Source of the DNA: a virus
Lineage: Duplodnaviria; Caudoviricetes
Direction: 5' to 3' (one strand)
IMG/VR virus record: IMGVR_UViG_3300037459_000161
Span: 1-59,721 of that record
DNA length: 59,721 nucleotides
Each line of letters begins with the position of its first letter. The stretch's first letter is position 1. Of this stretch, positions 11,035-30,350 are shown piece after piece. Made by a program: the position numbers and the translations under genes. Under the pieces are notes generated by a model. It was not told where the DNA came from. It ran no database searches and saw only the letters and a list, made by a program, of their open reading frames with translations.

Positions 11035-13307
11035 TATTCTTCCATCAGCAATACAAAATCGTCGGTGACCTTGTAAGCTACTTTCGTTCTAACACCCATT
11101 ATTCTTAGCTTATCTTCATGCACAACTACAATCAAGCCGTTCCGCATCATGTAGTATAACATTTTTTCAACGCCAGATCTAGGATTTTGTCTTTCTGGGT
11201 CGTCGTTCATTCTTCTCAACACTTCGTTGTTTCGTAAACATTGAGATAAATTAGTTGACGTAAAAATTCCCTTACCTTTTAATCCTTTTGGTACAGATTT
11301 CTTTCGATCATTATAACCATTATTCAAGATTTTAGACACAACAGGAGCAATTAAATTTTTTACAATTATCATCATATCATCAGAAGCCCCATAAGATAAA
11401 GCCTCTTCGATAGTTTTGATTTCACCTTCAATAGCTTCTCCTGCCCATTTGTATTCTTGTTGGCCGATACCGTTTAAACCATTCATGATCGACGTTATTG
11501 ATGCAATCTTGATTATCTTTATAAACGATCTTGACGCCATAGCTCGACGTAATTGATCGCCTTCTCTTTTGTATTTATTTTCTATATTAGTCCAGTAATC
11601 AGAATCGACTTGAATATTTATGTTAGACGTATCAACATTAATTATTTTACTAGAATTTTCATTTTGTTGTGGTAAACATTTGCGTATTAGATCCTTAATC
11701 CTAACTAAAATTTTGGGATCAAATTCTTTCCGTCGGTGAGTATTTAATTTTTTCTTGTCACGCATTGAGCGCATAACCCAAATTCGAGCAATGTCCCCCG
11801 AAACAGTTGCATCTTTAGCTTTCAATGCGCGCAAATATGAAAGTGGTGTAGAAACATGCGCGATAGTCAATGCTGGAGAGGGAATAGCTGGAATTGTATT
11901 TTCTGAATTTGAATAACTTTCACCACCAGCATATTCACCAGCTCCAGACGAACTAAAAATATCGAGCATTACACGGGTTAATCCTTTTTGATCCCCCGCT
12001 GTTGATTCACTCATTAAACCCGATTCTTCTAACACGCAAACTCTTGAAAGACCACCAGCCATCATATCAAATAAAGCTTTTGGGCCAGTAAACCTAGAAG
12101 CACCTTTAAAAGATGGGCCACCTTCTAATACGCATTTTTTTAATAGAATTGTGTTGATAGTGTTTTTCAAAACAGCTTTACCAATTCCTGTATCTGCTAA
12201 TAGGGCAACATACAAATTAAGTCCAGTGCCCAACACGTTATAACTACGACCAATAATGCCAGCCACAAGAGCAAACGAAGCCATAAGAGAAACCTCTTCG
12301 TTAGCGTGAGGTGCTGTTTCAAAAATGTTCTCACAAAGAATTCCCATTAATCCGGGTGGGTATCCAGTGTTTAATTGATATTCAACTATTTCAATTTTGG
12401 GAATTTCGATATCTGAGACGAGAGGATTGTCTTTTACGAAACGAATTGCATCGGTAATATTTGCAGAGAGATATTCAGGACGAATTCTTGCTTCCCATCG
12501 TTCGTCTTGAACTTTTGAACGATCCATTATATCATTAATTAATGCAAGTAATTCATCAGGGTTTTTGATACCGCAATTAACCCAGTGATTGAGTAACCAC
12601 AGGATTGAACCGTGAAAATTTGTACCTTCAACGATTGCTTCGCGCGCATCATTGAACGACGCAAATTTTAAATTGACAGCGCCGTTTAAACGCTTTTCTC
12701 TAACACTCTTTGATTTAATGGTATTATCGGGAGGGAAAGAATTTACAATTGTAAGCCAGCTATAAGGCTTTTCGTTAAACACATAAAACGTTGATTCGTA
12801 AGGTTCTTTCTTGTTGTGTTTAAACCCTGGAATACGGAGAACCCGAACTAAATCTTTTGCATTACCGTCAGTGTTGAATTTATTAGCTATGCCATTCATG
12901 ACATAACCCCATTCTTCTATTTCGTCGGTAGTTGTAAGCCAATAATAATGAAATTTCCCTTTGCTTGTTTCAACAACGATGTTCGGTATGATCGGAAAAT
13001 CATTTCTCGGCGTTTCTCTAATTTCGTCATCATCAGCCCATATTGCTCTGATAGATTTGAGCATTGTAGAAGTTCTGTGTCGCTGAGGATCTTTCCGTCT
13101 ATCAATTTCATTGACGCAAAAGAAAATTCCATATTCATTTTCGTTTTTTATCCTTAACTTTGCAAGAATATCATCTCTACTTAATTCGTAACCTTCATGA
13201 TAATGTATTGGTAGTCGATACGGTTTGCGATCTTTGCTTTTATCGTCGATCGCGCAAAAAACGTGGTTCCCTGGGAAGGAACTTAAAAATTCTTTCGCAT
13301 CTTGCAC
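11034..13307 (-). CDS. RepB-type (AEP) primase fused to a DUF3987-like P-loop domain
   Basis: AIWADDD, VETSKGKFHYYW, KDLVRVLRIPGF; C-terminal NLYVALLADTGIGK; GTG start with AGAAGGGG RBS. Confidence 0.8.
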   Translation of the reverse strand: MQDAKEFLSSFPGNHVFCAIDDKSKDRKPYRLPIHYHEGYELSRDDILAKLRIKNENEYGIFFCVNEIDRRKDPQRHRTSTMLKSIRAIWADDDEIRETPRNDFPIIPNIVVETSKGKFHYYWLTTTDEIEEWGYVMNGIANKFNTDGNAKDLVRVLRIPGFKHNKKEPYESTFYVFNEKPYSWLTIVNSFPPDNTIKSKSVREKRLNGAVNLKFASFNDAREAIVEGTNFHGSILWLLNHWVNCGIKNPDELLALINDIMDRSKVQDERWEARIRPEYLSANITDAIRFVKDNPLVSDIEIPKIEIVEYQLNTGYPPGLMGILCENIFETAPHANEEVSLMASFALVAGIIGRSYNVLGTGLNLYVALLADTGIGKAVLKNTINTILLKKCVLEGGPSFKGASRFTGPKALFDMMAGGLSRVCVLEESGLMSESTAGDQKGLTRVMLDIFSSSGAGEYAGGESYSNSENTIPAIPSPALTIAHVSTPLSYLRALKAKDATVSGDIARIWVMRSMRDKKKLNTHRRKEFDPKILVRIKDLIRKCLPQQNENSSKIINVDTSNINIQVDSDYWTNIENKYKREGDQLRRAMASRSFIKIIKIASITSIMNGLNGIGQQEYKWAGEAIEGEIKTIEEALSYGASDDMMIIVKNLIAPVVSKILNNGYNDRKKSVPKGLKGKGIFTSTNLSQCLRNNEVLRRMNDDPERQNPRSGVEKMLYYMMRNGLIVVVHEDKLRIMGVRTKVAYKVTDDFVLLMEE

Positions 13308-15720: not shown

Positions 15721-15732
15721 TTTATGAAAACT

Positions 15733-15805
15733 CAGGAGTTAGGATAACTGGAAAATCCATTGGGTTGTGGCCCCGAAAATAAAGGTTCAAGACCTTTACT
15801 CCTGA
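15733..15805 (+). tRNA. tRNA with GUG (His) anticodon and non-canonical acceptor end; no encoded CCA
   Basis: Acceptor CAGGAGT/ACTCCTG; D arm GGAT-AACTGGAAA-ATCC; anticodon arm TTGGG-TTGTGGC-CCCGA; T arm AAAGG-TTCAAGA-CCTTT; U8, A14, G18G19 and A15-U48 present. Confidence 0.85.
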
Positions 15806-15825
15806 TTTACATACAAAGGTAATCA

Positions 15826-26462: not shown

Positions 26463-27580
26463 GAATAGCTGTAGACGCTACATACCTGTATAAAATGGGT
26501 TCTAATGACAAACTTCAACAATGGACTATTTCAACTGAAGGTGATTTAATCAAAATTGAGTGGGGAGAATTTCAAGGACGCAAACAATACAAAGAAGAAA
26601 TTGTAGAGTTTGGTCTTGCTGGAAGATCTCATGAGGAGCAATTACTTTTAAGAGTACAATCAAGAGTTAATCGCAAACTTGATATTGGTTATGTTTTCAA
26701 TATGAAAGAAGCGCAAAGTAAACTAAAAACAAATCGGCTAGGTTTAAAAATGCCGATGCTCGCAAAAATATGGAGTAAAGTAAAAGAAATAGATTATGAA
26801 AATGCTGTAATTCAACCAAAATTAGATGGACACAGATGTTTGATTTATTTCGACGGTGAAGATTACATAGCTTATTCAAGAAATGGAAAACAAATCACTT
26901 CTATTACAAATATTTTAGCTGACGTTAGTAAATGTGGTATGCAACCTGGAACTACACTTGATGGTGAATTATACCATCATGGAACTGCATTACAAACAAT
27001 TGGTTCTTGGGTTAGGAGAGAACAACCAAACACTGATAAACTTTGTTACACAATTTACGATATGATTCCTGCAATTGATAGTGTTGTTCATGATTGTGAT
27101 TTTAAAACTAGACTTGAAATGCTGCGATCATTGCGTTTAAACAATAATCTTGGGTTACTTGGTTGCATAGAGAATATAACAGAGAATCAAATACCTGAAT
27201 TTTTAAAAAGTGTAAGATCAATGAAATACGAAGGTTTGATAATTCGCCAAGCTGGTTTTGGTTATCAAGATGGAAAGCGGAATAATGCTTTAATCAAAGT
27301 AAAACAATTTCTAGATGACGAATTTGAAGTGATAGATATTCAAGCTTCTAAAGATAGTTTTTGTATTTTACATTGTAGAACACATAATATACTTAGCACT
27401 ATATATGAAACTGTAACTAAAGTCACAGCACCAGGGACATTCGATGAAAAAGACTTTGTATTGGCTAATCGAAAAGATTATATAGGTAGATACGTTACAG
27501 TTGAATTCGCAGATTGGACATTGGAAGGAAAACTTTTCCATCCGATAGCAAAATGCTGGCGAGAAAAAAATGAAGAATAA
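26459..27580 (+). CDS. ATP-dependent DNA ligase
   Basis: PMLA, QPKLDGHRC (motif I), LDGELY, YD, YEGLIIR, LIKVK, C-terminal OB fold. Confidence 0.92.
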   Translation: MRIAVDATYLYKMGSNDKLQQWTISTEGDLIKIEWGEFQGRKQYKEEIVEFGLAGRSHEEQLLLRVQSRVNRKLDIGYVFNMKEAQSKLKTNRLGLKMPMLAKIWSKVKEIDYENAVIQPKLDGHRCLIYFDGEDYIAYSRNGKQITSITNILADVSKCGMQPGTTLDGELYHHGTALQTIGSWVRREQPNTDKLCYTIYDMIPAIDSVVHDCDFKTRLEMLRSLRLNNNLGLLGCIENITENQIPEFLKSVRSMKYEGLIIRQAGFGYQDGKRNNALIKVKQFLDDEFEVIDIQASKDSFCILHCRTHNILSTIYETVTKVTAPGTFDEKDFVLANRKDYIGRYVTVEFADWTLEGKLFHPIAKCWREKNEE

Positions 27581-28022
27581 TGGATTTTATTGCATTGCTT
27601 TAGATAATCCAAAAAGCGGAGAAAACGTTGGTGGTTCAATGCGTGCCGCTCAAATTTATGGTGCTTCATTAATTGTTTTAGGTGGTAAACGTCCAGAAAA
27701 ATTAATCAAACACCCAACAGATACAATGAAAGCGTTTAAACATATACCATCTGTTTTAGTTGAAGATATATTTGAAGCTTTACCTTTTGATTGCATTCCT
27801 GTCGCTGTAGATTTGATTAATGGTGCAATGCCACTACCAAATTATTGCCACCCAAAGAGAGCATTTTATATTTTTGGCGCTGAAGATGCAACATTAGGAA
27901 AACGGATTACTGATCGGTGTAGGGATATTGTCTTTATTCCAACGCGGAGTTGCATGAATTTAGCTGCCACAGTTAATGTAGTTCTTTATGACAGATTATC
28001 AAAATTAGGGGTTGCAATTTAA
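27570..28022 (+). CDS. Stand-alone SPOUT (SpoU/TrmH/TrmL-like) RNA 2'-O-methyltransferase
   Basis: LDNPKSGENVGGSMRAA, YIFGAED, IPT..CMNLAATVNVVLYDR. Confidence 0.9.
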   Translation: MKNNGFYCIALDNPKSGENVGGSMRAAQIYGASLIVLGGKRPEKLIKHPTDTMKAFKHIPSVLVEDIFEALPFDCIPVAVDLINGAMPLPNYCHPKRAFYIFGAEDATLGKRITDRCRDIVFIPTRSCMNLAATVNVVLYDRLSKLGVAI

Positions 28023-28039
28023 AATGAATCACCTATAAT
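28012..28039 (+). promoter_or_regulatory. Promoter for the RNA array and TROVE operon
   Basis: TTGCAA-N16-TATAAT; predicted start ~28046 coincides with the 5' end of unit 1. Confidence 0.7.
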
Positions 28040-28046
28040 CCTGATT

Positions 28047-28114
28047 GCTCGAATGGCGTATATAACGGTTACTTCATTATAGATAAGATACTGTTATTGC
28101 TTGTTCCTTCGAGC
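28047..28114 (+). ncRNA. Y-RNA-like unit 1
   Basis: GCTCGAA/TTCGAGC stem, TGGCGTA...TGTTCC core, ATAACGGT/ACTGTTAT stem, TACTTC. Confidence 0.75.
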
Positions 28115-28126
28115 GTTTGATTTGAT

Positions 28127-28223
28127 GTTACAATGGCGTAGAATACAGTTACTTCTTTACTGAAACAAAGATAGTCTACCGAAAGGGGACTAACAATTTC
28201 TGTATTCGTTTGTTCCTTGTAGC
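28127..28223 (+). ncRNA. Y-RNA-like unit 2
   Basis: GTTACAA/TTGTAGC stem, same core, GAATACAG/CTGTATTC stem; insert with a CTGAAA loop and a GAAA-tetraloop hairpin. Confidence 0.75.
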
Positions 28224-28230
28224 TTGATTT

Positions 28231-28346
28231 TGTGATGGCGTAGTTAACAGTTACTTCCTCTGCTAAAGGAGAAACCTAGTTAAGAATTTGGCTATCAAGT
28301 CAAATCTAAACCAAGGACTTTGTACTGTAAACGTTTGTTCCTCACA
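28231..28346 (+). ncRNA. Y-RNA-like unit 3
   Basis: TGTGA/TCACA stem, same core, GTTAACAGT/ACTGTAAAC stem; insert TTCCT-CTGCTAA-AGGAG plus a long hairpin. Confidence 0.75.
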
Positions 28347-28358
28347 CTTGATTTACTT

Positions 28359-28439
28359 TGTAGTGGCGTAGATAGCAGATACTTCAGTTCGATCCTGTTA
28401 AGCCTTGGATGGCAAGCCTGTTATCGTATGTTCCCTACA
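28359..28439 (+). ncRNA. Y-RNA-like unit 4 (YrlA-like T-loop)
   Basis: TGTAG/CTACA stem, same core, GATAGCAG/CTGTTATC stem; insert CAG-TTCGATC-CTG and GCC-TTGGAT-GGC. Confidence 0.75.
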
Positions 28440-28461
28440 CTCACAGAAGGGGTTTTCTAAA

Positions 28462-29817
28462 ATGCGTACTAATTTACTTCCTGAATCAATGCGAACACAT
28501 GAAGGTGCAAAAGCTTACACACTAACAACAGAACTTGAATTACGTCGTTCTGTACTTTCATGTTTTCTGTGGGAAGATTCTTTTTACGAAAATGGAGTTT
28601 CTATTGCAGAGCGAATTTCAACGCTTTGTGATTCAGTTGAACCTGAAAAAATTGCAAAAATTGCAATTGAAGCAAGAGAAGTAAATCATCTTCGTCATGC
28701 GCCTCTATGGTTGATTTGCGGTTTAGCAAGAAATCATAGTGGTGATTCACTTGTTTCTGATACTGTAGAACGAGTTATTCAACGAGTTGATGAAATTCCT
28801 GAATTGCTATCTCTGTATTCTCTTAGTGTTGTAGGTGTTAAAACAAAAAATGGTAGAACAAAGAAACTTGGAAAACTTTCCAATGGTATCAAAAATGGAA
28901 TTGCGCGAGCATTTACAAAGTTCACACCCTATCAACTTGCAAAGTATAACCGCAAAGGTGCAATCACTTTGAAAGATGCTTTGTTTGTTTCTCACGCTAA
29001 ACCTATTACGGAAGCACAAGGTAAAGCCTGGAAAGATTTGATTAATGGTGAACTTGCTACGCCCGACACTTGGGAAGTTGCTTTGTCTGGTGGAGCGGAT
29101 AAGAAAGAAACATTTATTCGTTTGATTGCAGAAAAGAAATTGGGAGCACTTGCTTTGCTTCGTAATTTGCGGAATATGGATGAATCTGGTGTACCTATTG
29201 ACGTAATAAAGGGAGCATTGGCGGAAGCTAACGTTTCTAGAGTTTTGCCTTTTCGGTTTATTGCAGCGGCGCAATTTGTTCCCCAATTGGAAGAAGATCT
29301 AGAAAAGTGTATGTTGAGAAGCATTCAAGAACAACCTAAAATTCCTGGTTCAACCGCAATGCTTATTGACCATTCTGGTTCTATGCCTGGGTATCAAATT
29401 TCTGAAAAATCCAAACTTGATCGTTTCGACGCTGCTACTGCGCTTGCAATGATTGCACGAGAAACTTTTGAAAATATTCGTACTTTTGCTTTTTCTGAAC
29501 AAACTGTAGAAGTTCCTTCTCGTCATGGTTTTGCTTTGCGAGATGCAATCGGAAATTGTATGGGTTTTGGTATGACTAGGCTTGGAGCAGCAATTGAGCA
29601 TGTTGGTAAAGTTTATAATTACGATAGAATTATTGTTATTACCGACGAGCAAAGTCACGATCGGGTTGGGCCTCCCAAGGCTGGTTCAAATGGATATATG
29701 ATTAACGTTGCAACCTATAAGAATGGTGTAGGTTATGGTCCCTGGACACATATTGACGGGTGGTCTGAATCTGTACTTAAATTCATTGCCGAACTTGAAA
29801 ACTTCGGCAATTCATGA
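28462..29817 (+). CDS. rsr: Ro60/Rsr-like TROVE + vWA domain RNA-binding protein (451 aa; start revised)
   Basis: THEGAKA, SCFLWEDSFYENG, LRHAPL, YQLAKYNR, PDTWE, ALLRNLRN, VLPFRF, MIDAS DHSGSM, VITDEQ, IDGWSE; AGAAGGGG RBS before ATG 28462. Confidence 0.92.
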   Translation: MRTNLLPESMRTHEGAKAYTLTTELELRRSVLSCFLWEDSFYENGVSIAERISTLCDSVEPEKIAKIAIEAREVNHLRHAPLWLICGLARNHSGDSLVSDTVERVIQRVDEIPELLSLYSLSVVGVKTKNGRTKKLGKLSNGIKNGIARAFTKFTPYQLAKYNRKGAITLKDALFVSHAKPITEAQGKAWKDLINGELATPDTWEVALSGGADKKETFIRLIAEKKLGALALLRNLRNMDESGVPIDVIKGALAEANVSRVLPFRFIAAAQFVPQLEEDLEKCMLRSIQEQPKIPGSTAMLIDHSGSMPGYQISEKSKLDRFDAATALAMIARETFENIRTFAFSEQTVEVPSRHGFALRDAIGNCMGFGMTRLGAAIEHVGKVYNYDRIIVITDEQSHDRVGPPKAGSNGYMINVATYKNGVGYGPWTHIDGWSESVLKFIAELENFGNS

Positions 29818-30350
29818 TCGTCTTTGATACCGAAACAACAGGTTTAATCAAACCTGAAGATTGTTCGATTCACTTGCAACCACATATTACAGAATTTTCT
29901 GGGTTGCAAGTGGATGACAATTTTTTCATACAAAATCAAGTTGATACTTTCGTAAAACCTCCAATACCAATTCCAGATTTTTGCACTCGTTTAAATGGCA
30001 TAAGCGACGAAACTGTTGCTGATGCTCCAGATTTTTTAGATATTTATCCACAATTAGTTGCTTTGTTTTTAGGCGAAACAACTGTAGTAGGACATAATGT
30101 AACTTTTGATTTAGGTGTTCTGTATTTCGAGTTAAAAAGACACGATTTAGAATTTAAATTTCCTTGGCCTCAAAAATGGATTTGCACCGTCGAGAAATCT
30201 ATGCCGATAGAAGGCCATAGATTGACACTGAGCAGACTTTATCAAATTGCCACTGGCAATACCCACGAAGGCGCCCATCGTGCAAAGCAAGACGTTAGAG
30301 CAACGCTAACATGCTATCAATTTCTTCTTAGAAAAGGTTTGATTACTTGA
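29814..30350 (+). CDS. DEDDh 3'-5' exonuclease (DnaQ/epsilon-like)
   Basis: FDTETTGL, GHNVTFD, AHRAKQDV. Confidence 0.92.
   Translation: MIVFDTETTGLIKPEDCSIHLQPHITEFSGLQVDDNFFIQNQVDTFVKPPIPIPDFCTRLNGISDETVADAPDFLDIYPQLVALFLGETTVVGHNVTFDLGVLYFELKRHDLEFKFPWPQKWICTVEKSMPIEGHRLTLSRLYQIATGNTHEGAHRAKQDVRATLTCYQFLLRKGLIT

Follow-up and report, generated by a model that had tools for sequence, protein, structure and literature searches.

Described Y RNAs and phage Ro60 systems

Y RNAs are encoded near the Ro60 gene, within about 4 kb and on the same strand, and bind Ro60 via a helix of their 5′ and 3′ ends, tethering it to PNPase (Chen 2014 PMC4201824). The Ro-binding motif has been defined as GNCGAAN0-1G (Chen 2014 PMC4201824). 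Each species has at least one Y RNA with a tRNA-like domain, which in YrlA follows the order T arm, acceptor-like hairpin, D arm, and the tRNA-like RNA is accompanied by long-hairpin Y RNAs such as YrlB and Yrn2 (Chen 2014 PMC4201824). The accessible part of Wang 2018 (bioRxiv 10.1101/312249) places the YrlA elements at 33–49 (TSL), 50–64 (AS) and 67–81 (DSL), and there, as in Chen 2014 (PMC4201824), the conserved D- and T-stem sequences, or the YrlA elbow, are the proposed effector site.

Yrn1 and RNAs a/b of D. radiodurans retain a T arm but have no full D arm (Chen 2014 PMC4201824); several such RNAs lie in tandem upstream of rsr and arise from a polycistronic precursor. The Ro60 of Thermus phage phiLo binds two upstream Y-like RNAs (Yrl1 and Yrl2) as well as the host PNPase, according to the portion of PMC12135203 available.

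The Ro60 locus and its four-unit array

The window, i.e. the whole stretch of DNA analysed, spans an entire IMG/VR virus record (59,721 bp), a complete phage genome bounded by direct terminal repeats, and encodes a Ro60/Rsr orthologue with 46–55% identity to Ro proteins of phages and Acidobacteriota. Upstream of this gene lie four direct-repeat units (28042–28445), the array ending 20 nt before the Ro60 ORF, and the last of them, unit 4, contains the flagged 29 nt (28385–28413) considered here. The features of the locus are listed below, where R1 is a covariance model built from relatives.

28012–28039, plus strand: sigma-70-like promoter TTGCAA-16-TATAAT just upstream of unit 1 (consensus scan, 10/12 matches, a pattern match alone)
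28046–28115, plus strand: Y-RNA-like unit 1, short hairpin type (R1 38.4 bits, E 2.3e-7; repeat family D1/D3)
28126–28224, plus strand: Y-RNA-like unit 2 (R1 41.1 bits, E 5.5e-8; fold z = -2.44)
28228–28349, plus strand: Y-RNA-like unit 3 (R1 46.4 bits, E 3.1e-9), with an anticodon-arm-like hairpin at 28255–28271
28356–28442, plus strand: Y-RNA-like unit 4, holding the flagged 29 nt (R1 35.9 bits, E 9e-7)
28462–29817, plus strand: Ro60/Rsr orthologue (TROVE + vWA), 451 aa (Pfam TROVE E 3.3e-13; Ro60 vWA E 1.2e-4, below its cut-off)

In all four units the 5′ half (UGGCGUAG ... YAGNUACUUC) and the 3′ half (CUGU ... UUGUUCC) are conserved. R1 derives from alignment A1, which comprises 33 canonical YrlA units of relatives, each with a T arm, an acceptor-like hairpin and a D arm; from A1, RNAalifold recovers all four helices (Y stem, T, acceptor-like and D), and 22 of the 28 pairs show compensatory changes. 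Applied to both strands of the entire window (59,721 bp × 2) with filters off, R1 returns the four units and no other match at E < 0.1, aligning in each the Ro-binding helix and the UACUUC motif alone and skipping the inner 33 nt of unit 4 as a local end. Canonical YrlA-type units of relatives score 78–104 bits and no window unit comes near this range; the window thus contains no canonical YrlA. An HMM of the 5′ half, which has 251 matches in 79 sources, finds exactly the four units in the window. Rfam gives no match on the array at gathering thresholds or at E ≤ 10, bar a spurious HSR-omega, and this silence is uninformative, as Rfam also misses the canonical YrlA units of the relatives.

The relatives comprise 12 viral, 80 metagenome and 39 genome Ro60 loci, the last mostly from Acidobacteriota, and most of them carry arrays of like units upstream of Ro60. 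R1 detects 31 units at E ≤ 0.01 in 11 of the 12 viral loci, all on the Ro strand, with 28 of the 31 in the ~900 nt before Ro and three further upstream. The phage contigs L004, L007 and L005 have no Y unit directly upstream of Ro60 and carry a promoter-like TTTACA..TATAAT there, and a weak R1 match (27.2 bits) is present at L004/L007:361–477, ~2.5 kb upstream of Ro60. Scanned at the protein level, the viral, metagenome and genome contigs contain no close homologue of the phage Ro60 (at most 52–55% full-length identity), tblastn of phage records gave Ro identities under 60% throughout, and blastn of 27000–30000 against 50,697 phage records gave no match. A strict DNA pattern had no match either; a loose pattern hit at least 119 stretches, all of them chance among the 80 matches listed, with no R1 match in 710 kb.

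The array is flanked by genes for an ATP-dependent ligase, a 150-aa SpoU-family methyltransferase, a DEDD exonuclease and a DnaE-type polymerase. The methyltransferase gene (27570–28022) encodes a minimal SpoU/SPOUT 2′-O-methyltransferase with a weak match to RlmB and ends 24 nt before unit 1. None of the four proteins has a tblastn match at 1e-4 in the 131 other Ro loci; no SpoU homologue thus stands beside Ro60 there, and among these loci the window alone has a methylase next to the array. ARAGORN identifies one tRNA in the window, tRNA-His at 15732–15806, and no other.

A conserved spacer motif, YUUGAUUU, follows each of units 1–3 (28116–28125, 28223–28231 and 28348–28356), and a terminator-like site is called after unit 1 (28098–28115 plus TTTGATTTGA). 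Judged by sequence, the spacer motifs might serve as 3′ tails, as sites of processing or as leaky terminators. Unit 4 has no such spacer and continues into the Ro60 ribosome-binding site.

Anatomy of unit 4

The elements of unit 4 are as follows.

28364–28371, plus strand: 5′ strand Ro-binding motif UGGCGUAG, a variant of GNCGAAN0-1G conserved in the four units and in relatives (A1)
28371–28378, plus strand: 5′ strand of the inner Y stem, pairing with 28418–28425 (8 pairs verified singly; equivalents covary in relatives)
28382–28384, plus strand: CUU, candidate 3-bp helix P1 with AAG at 28414–28416, closing a three-way junction (pair probabilities 0.74–0.82, from the ensemble alone)
28385–28397, plus strand: T-loop hairpin with 3-bp stem CAG/CUG, loop UUCGAUC and G-C closure (sequence, census)
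28398–28401, plus strand: UUAA linker, at the site of the YrlA acceptor-like hairpin (against alignment A2)
28402–28413, plus strand: second hairpin GCC/UUGGAU/GGC, proposed as a D-loop mimic, the most stable element of the isolated module
28427–28439, plus strand: 3′ strand of the Ro-binding helix, UAUGUUCC, then CUACA pairing with 28359–28363 (repeats, R1)

The unit ends 20 nt before the Ro60/TROVE start codon (ATG 28462), well within 4 kb and on the same strand, and its paired ends form a bulged helix (UGGCGUAG/UGUUCC; R1 E 9e-7) whose Ro-binding motif, GGCGUAG, differs by one letter from the published GNCGAA. Unit 4 is identified as a Y RNA because the Ro60/TROVE gene lies directly downstream on the same strand, because R1, which is derived from the covarying stems of relatives, picks the four units alone in the window, and because tandem Y arrays upstream of Ro are the rule in relatives. 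The first-pass annotation had placed CAG-UUCGAUC-CUG at 28385–28397 and GCC-UUGGAU-GGC at 28402–28413, in unit 4 of an array and with no acceptor-like stem between them; the letters and coordinates prove exact, UUAA alone separates the hairpins, and the array is a Ro-associated one of Y-RNA type. Its statement that the T arm precedes the D arm in YrlA agrees with Chen 2014 (PMC4201824) and with the accessible part of Wang 2018 (10.1101/312249).

Unit 4 shares with YrlA of S. Typhimurium, M. smegmatis and mycobacteriophages its position beside Ro60 on the same strand, a GNCG-type stem motif, a YUAC-type motif before the module, and a T-loop 5′ of a GG-containing hairpin. Unlike YrlA, it has neither the acceptor-like hairpin between T and D, which in relatives has 6–7 covarying base pairs, nor the conserved D arm UAGCUCAGUGGYAGAGC: where YrlA carries a nearly invariant D stem-loop (UAGCUCAG..GG.AGAGC), 28402–28413 is a 3-bp stem with a 6-nt loop. 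The YrlA T stem has 5 bp of nearly invariant sequence and a UUCRANY loop; the unit 4 loop and its G-C closure fit, whereas the stem has 3 bp, of other sequence. The module measures ~33 nt against ~80 nt in YrlA, and the YrlA models built here leave it unaligned.

By the sequence evidence, unit 4 may best be described, at a probability of about 0.6, as a reduced YrlA-type phage Y RNA, whose paired ends would be the Ro60-binding bulged helix and which would have kept the T-loop hairpin together with one 3-bp hairpin. That the unit lost the acceptor-like hairpin together with the conserved D arm and 5-bp T stem is, on the same comparison, somewhat probable. In favour of this reading, the best array-local match of R2, a covariance model of the tRNA-like module, is the unit 4 T loop. 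A Y unit reduced to a T arm is plausible since short T-arm units occur in the related loci L017 and L003 and T-arm-only RNAs in D. radiodurans. Counted against it are the 3-bp T stem, the weak R2 score, a T-stem pair probability of ~0.04, the V register discussed below, and a search for homologues that gave none closer than ~55% Ro identity. A different candidate, an attP site or tRNA-gene fragment, was ruled out: the 13-nt hairpin lies inside a complete Y unit and has no acceptor 3′ strand.

The T-loop hairpin

T-loops also occur outside tRNA, in RNase P, rRNA and riboswitches, where five nucleotides make a U-turn-like loop that has a 1-5 reverse-Hoogsteen pair and takes an intercalating purine from a distant element. 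The loop UUCGAUC fits the T-loop consensus U54 U55 C56 R57 A58 N N; U28388 and A28392 would be able to form the 1-5 reverse-Hoogsteen pair, and G28387-C28395 closes the loop. Compared with T-loops outside tRNA, unit 4 fits by sequence alone; for the purine that would intercalate between loop positions 4 and 5, the candidate donor is the GG in the hairpin that follows.

Chance rates were estimated from 200 first-order Markov simulations. G-closed TTCRANN-C loops with a stem of at least 3 bp occur four times in the window on both strands, against 2.0 ± 1.3 expected, one of them being tRNA-His. On the minus strand, 12595–12620 can form a T-loop-like hairpin (UCACGG/UUCAAUC/CUGUGG, 6-bp stem) that has no other tRNA or Y-RNA feature around it; it is probably chance, as 2.0 such motifs are expected per window. 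For the 404-nt array on one strand the expectation is 0.007.

A census of the relatives and the window covers 234 units with a registered 5′ motif, for 206 of which the 3′ partner strand was found, some 3′ ends being still mis-set. The T-loop motif is present in 138 of these 206 units and absent in 68. Its stem has 5 bp in 111 of the 138, 4 bp in 12, 6 bp in six, 7 bp in one, 3 bp in three, 2 bp in three and 1 bp in two, which places unit 4 among the eight with 3 bp or fewer, and its stem sequence differs from the conserved GCRGG/CCYGC. The loop UUCGAUC occurs in five census T-loop hairpins, unit 4 included. By census boundaries unit 4 measures 81 nt, and no shorter T-loop-bearing unit has a credible 3′ boundary; ‘T’ units of 61 nt (L012), 69 nt (L053) and 77 nt (L078) and an 82-nt unit (L025) were left out as short units, being by eye apparent truncation artefacts. 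Among sources with at least three units, 44 of 45 have a T-loop unit; the window counts via unit 4, its sole T-loop unit, which leaves 43 of 44 others, in a set of non-independent sources that includes many near-identical Acidobacteriota loci.

R2, a T-acceptor-D covariance model from 34 sequences of relatives (alignment A2), has no match at unit 4 at E ≤ 10 when run on the whole window. Run on the array alone (411 nt), its best match is the T loop plus closing pair of unit 4 (28387–28395; 2.2 bits, E 0.38). The alignment to a YrlA model that the first-pass annotation had proposed as a check thus recovers the T loop at this low score and leaves the GG hairpin unmatched.

Given the chance expectation of 0.007 and the T-loop units in 43 of 44 other arrays, the T-loop of unit 4 is probably real rather than a chance likeness, as far as sequence can tell. 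It is nevertheless an atypical T-loop hairpin, with a 3-bp stem, no conserved stem sequence and a pair probability of ~0.04.

Folding of unit 4

Within the full-unit ensemble, the T stem has a pair probability of ~0.04 and the GG hairpin ~0.06, and both the MFE and the centroid structure form one hairpin in which GUUCGA (28387–28392) pairs with UUGGAU (28405–28410). The 29-nt segment alone is no more stable than its shuffles (z = -0.06), and the MFE of the isolated module is the GG hairpin (-4.9 kcal/mol). With the Y stem fixed, the T stem gains ~0.8–0.9 kcal/mol and the GG hairpin ~5. The modelled energies express no preference for the two-hairpin fold.

The single predicted hairpin bears on an improbable reading in which the T-loop likeness is incidental: unit 4 would be one irregular YrlB-like hairpin, or the V arm of a Y RNA with its T, acceptor and D arms deleted, and hence, without any mimicry of tRNA, either an ordinary Y RNA that binds Ro or a copy in decay. 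Long-hairpin Y RNAs of this kind exist (YrlB, Yrn2; Chen 2014 PMC4201824), a third of the census units (68/206) do without any T-loop, and the hairpin sits exactly in V register. Against this stand the G-U pairs that make up three of the six pairs of the alternative stem, the motif expectation of 0.007 per array, and the presence of a T-loop unit in 43 of 44 other arrays, where the window would otherwise have none.

The second hairpin

The first-pass annotation had read 28402–28413 as a D-loop-like hairpin and had proposed a contact between its GG and the T-loop. When the 20 nt 3′ of the T hairpin are shuffled, 26.6% of the shuffles contain a hairpin with at least three Watson-Crick pairs and a 5–11-nt loop containing GG, as do 12.1% of random 20-mers of array composition; at a chance rate of 12–27%, the GG hairpin is no commoner than chance. 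The D-arm part of R2 has no match to it, the sole overlapping match in the array-only search scoring -2.9 bits.

The likeliest counterpart of unit 4, on sequence grounds, is the Ro-proximal last unit of L003 (2825–2932), a low-GC phage contig whose Ro is 50% identical. It has the same GUUCGAUCC in the same place, followed by a 5-bp hairpin with the loop UGAAAUU and no GG. The 88-nt unit L017:1306–1393 combines a GCC-GAAA-GGC mini-hairpin with a 5-bp T arm. The combination of a T-loop hairpin with a single mini-hairpin on the Y stem thus recurs in relatives and the GG does not, and the second hairpin is treated here as a generic structural hairpin, D-arm identity being unsupported.

These results also bear on the tRNA elbow. 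In an unlikely reading, unit 4 would be a minimal elbow, where the T-loop (28388–28394) receives G28407/G28408 as equivalents of G18/G19, with a G19:C56 pair and G18 intercalated between 57 and 58, so that 29 nt without acceptor or anticodon arms would recruit elbow-reading factors. The order of T then GG hairpin is that of YrlA, no element of the isolated module is more stable than the GG hairpin, and the CUU/AAG helix (p ~0.8) would close a neat three-way junction with both hairpins. By eye, UUAAGCC...GGCA loosely resembles U8-A9-G10-C11...C25-A26 of the conserved D arm in A2, and 3-bp D-arm variants appear in non-canonical units of relatives, e.g. CCC/UGUCGGUA/GGG in L013. However, a GG-loop hairpin arises by chance in 12–27% of trials, the D-arm part of R2 is unmatched (best overlap -2.9 bits), and neither the L003 counterpart (UGAAAUU) nor the L017 mini-hairpin (GAAA) has a GG. 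The D- and T-stem sequences given for the effector site in the accessible part of Wang 2018 are absent from unit 4. A three-way junction with zero-nucleotide linkers and 3-bp arms is unlike tRNA and could not simply copy its perpendicular geometry, which makes a literal elbow copy doubtful.

From the first-pass proposal, the T-loop thus stands as unlikely to be chance (0.007 per array), while its pairing with a D-loop-like hairpin lacks support (12–27% chance, no R2 match). The proposed T-loop/GG contact finds none either, as R2 does not include the GG hairpin, the energies are neutral and the L003 counterpart has no GG.

Register of the hairpin and tRNA features across the array

Counted from the UUC of UACUUC, the unit 4 hairpin has the 5 + 7 + 5 register of the V arm of canonical YrlA, which is anticodon-arm-like. 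The register is exact (UUC + 2 nt, 7-nt loop, 5 nt), as in unit 3 and in the 29 of 173 non-redundant units that have at least three contiguous pairs in it, 20 of the 29 with YU...R. loops. The unit 3 hairpin at 28255–28271 (UUCCU/CUGCUAA/AGGAG) has all five pairs in V register, with U at loop position 2 and A at positions 6–7. Unit 2 carries a similar hairpin at 28157–28174, with a UCUUU/AAAGA stem and an 8-nt loop.

TTCRA loops are found in two of the 29 V-register hairpins, unit 4 and a canonical L019 unit, against ~0.06 expected (29/512), which again argues against an incidental T-loop. The canonical YrlA-type unit L019:760–898 has two T-type loops, one in a T-like V arm (UUCGC/UUCGAAU/GCGGG) and one in its genuine T arm. 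By its position, the unit 4 hairpin may be a V arm with a T-type loop, not a relocated T arm; given the V register, it may not descend from a T arm, and the loop is T-like either way. The earlier suggestion that the array splits tRNA features among its units therefore holds in part: unit 3 has an anticodon-arm-like hairpin, but the unit 4 hairpin is in the same V register and may itself be a V arm.

A fuller version of this suggestion is very doubtful. It would have a phage tRNA elbow cut to ~30 nt, in which a 3-bp T arm and a 3-bp GG hairpin sit on the CUU/AAG junction atop a Ro60-binding stem, with the look-alike parts split between anticodon-arm-like units 2 and 3 and an elbow in unit 4. 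If it were true, one Ro60 could be steered to different tRNA-handling host factors during infection, and the neighbouring SpoU methyltransferase (27570–28022) could act on the unit loops.

Other possibly tRNA-shaped units in related loci

L003 also encodes two RNAs (2304–2436 and 2537–2666) in normal, non-permuted tRNA order, with a 7–10-bp acceptor stem from both ends, a D arm and a T arm, and with a long hairpin carrying the Ro-binding motifs UUUGAUC ... UAGCGUA ... AUACUUC in place of the anticodon arm, so that a loop closes what is usually the open end of a Y RNA. For L003:2304–2436 the MFE is a cloverleaf-like fold (z = -2.44), and ARAGORN calls no tRNA in either RNA. By these predicted folds, the pair could represent a class of Y RNAs that are shaped like tRNA and leave their acceptor ends free.

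The units L022:838–968 and L055:731–866, and similar ones in L021, L080, L081 and L093 (1334–1466), have a tRNA-like part that by eye is apparently broken in the D loop. After UACUUC they run ..GGUAGAGC (the 3′ half of the D loop plus stem), a mini anticodon-like hairpin, a T arm and an acceptor-like hairpin, and GUAGCU(C) stands just 5′ of the 3′ Y strand. The Y stem would then emerge from the D loop, with a putative long-range D stem.

Comparison with reduced and phage-borne Y RNAs

Unit 4 resembles D. radiodurans Yrn1 and RNAs a/b in being Ro-associated and tandem and in having a T arm without a full D arm; Yrn1, compared by description only, differs in the other orientation of its T and D elements and in its anticodon-like arm. 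As in phiLo, a phage Ro60 gene has tandem Y-like RNAs directly upstream; in phiLo, by the accessible part of its source, these RNAs bind the phage Ro60 and the host PNPase. The phiLo array has two units versus four here, and the term ‘tRNA-like’ has no occurrence in that part of PMC12135203, from which phiLo is compared by description only.

Closest in layout are L017:1306–1393 and L003:2825–2932, which share with unit 4 a Y stem with a small junction, a T-loop hairpin plus one mini-hairpin, and the want of both acceptor and D arm; like unit 4, the L003 unit is Ro-proximal, and its UUCGAUC loop is identical. They differ in T stems of 4–5 bp and mini-hairpin loops without GG, and in L017 the hairpin precedes the T arm. 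No description of an acceptor-less Y RNA with a T arm plus GG hairpin was found in the main texts of the papers searched on YrlA/Y RNA and on phage Rsr/TROVE.

Proposed function and significance

The reduced-YrlA reading starts from what is observed, i.e. the sequence and position of unit 4, the homology of its Ro-binding stem and a non-random T-loop, and it predicts expression, Ro60 binding, the T-loop fold and a partner. The array would be transcribed from the promoter-like site at 28012–28039, perhaps together with Ro60, and the transcript would be cut into four RNAs, each of which may load onto the phage Ro60 via the conserved helix. The differing distal modules could then give the Ro60 particle different partners or stabilities, and the unit 4 T-loop might act as a compact nuclease-resistant cap and/or as a handle for host readers of the T arm, such as TruB-type enzymes or PNPase.

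tRNA-like Y RNAs are already known, and unit 4 would be a reduced variant of them, closest in its working to the T-arm-only D. radiodurans RNAs and the L017 and L003 units. The elbow, with its conserved T and D stems, is the proposed effector site of the mimicry. If unit 4 is a decayed copy, it is ordinary. If it is functional, the acceptor arm, the D-arm sequence and the T-stem sequence would be dispensable for the mimic, and the unit would offer a very small construct for work on phage Ro60 binding and structure. The locus adds a four-unit array without a canonical YrlA to the few described phage Ro60 systems.
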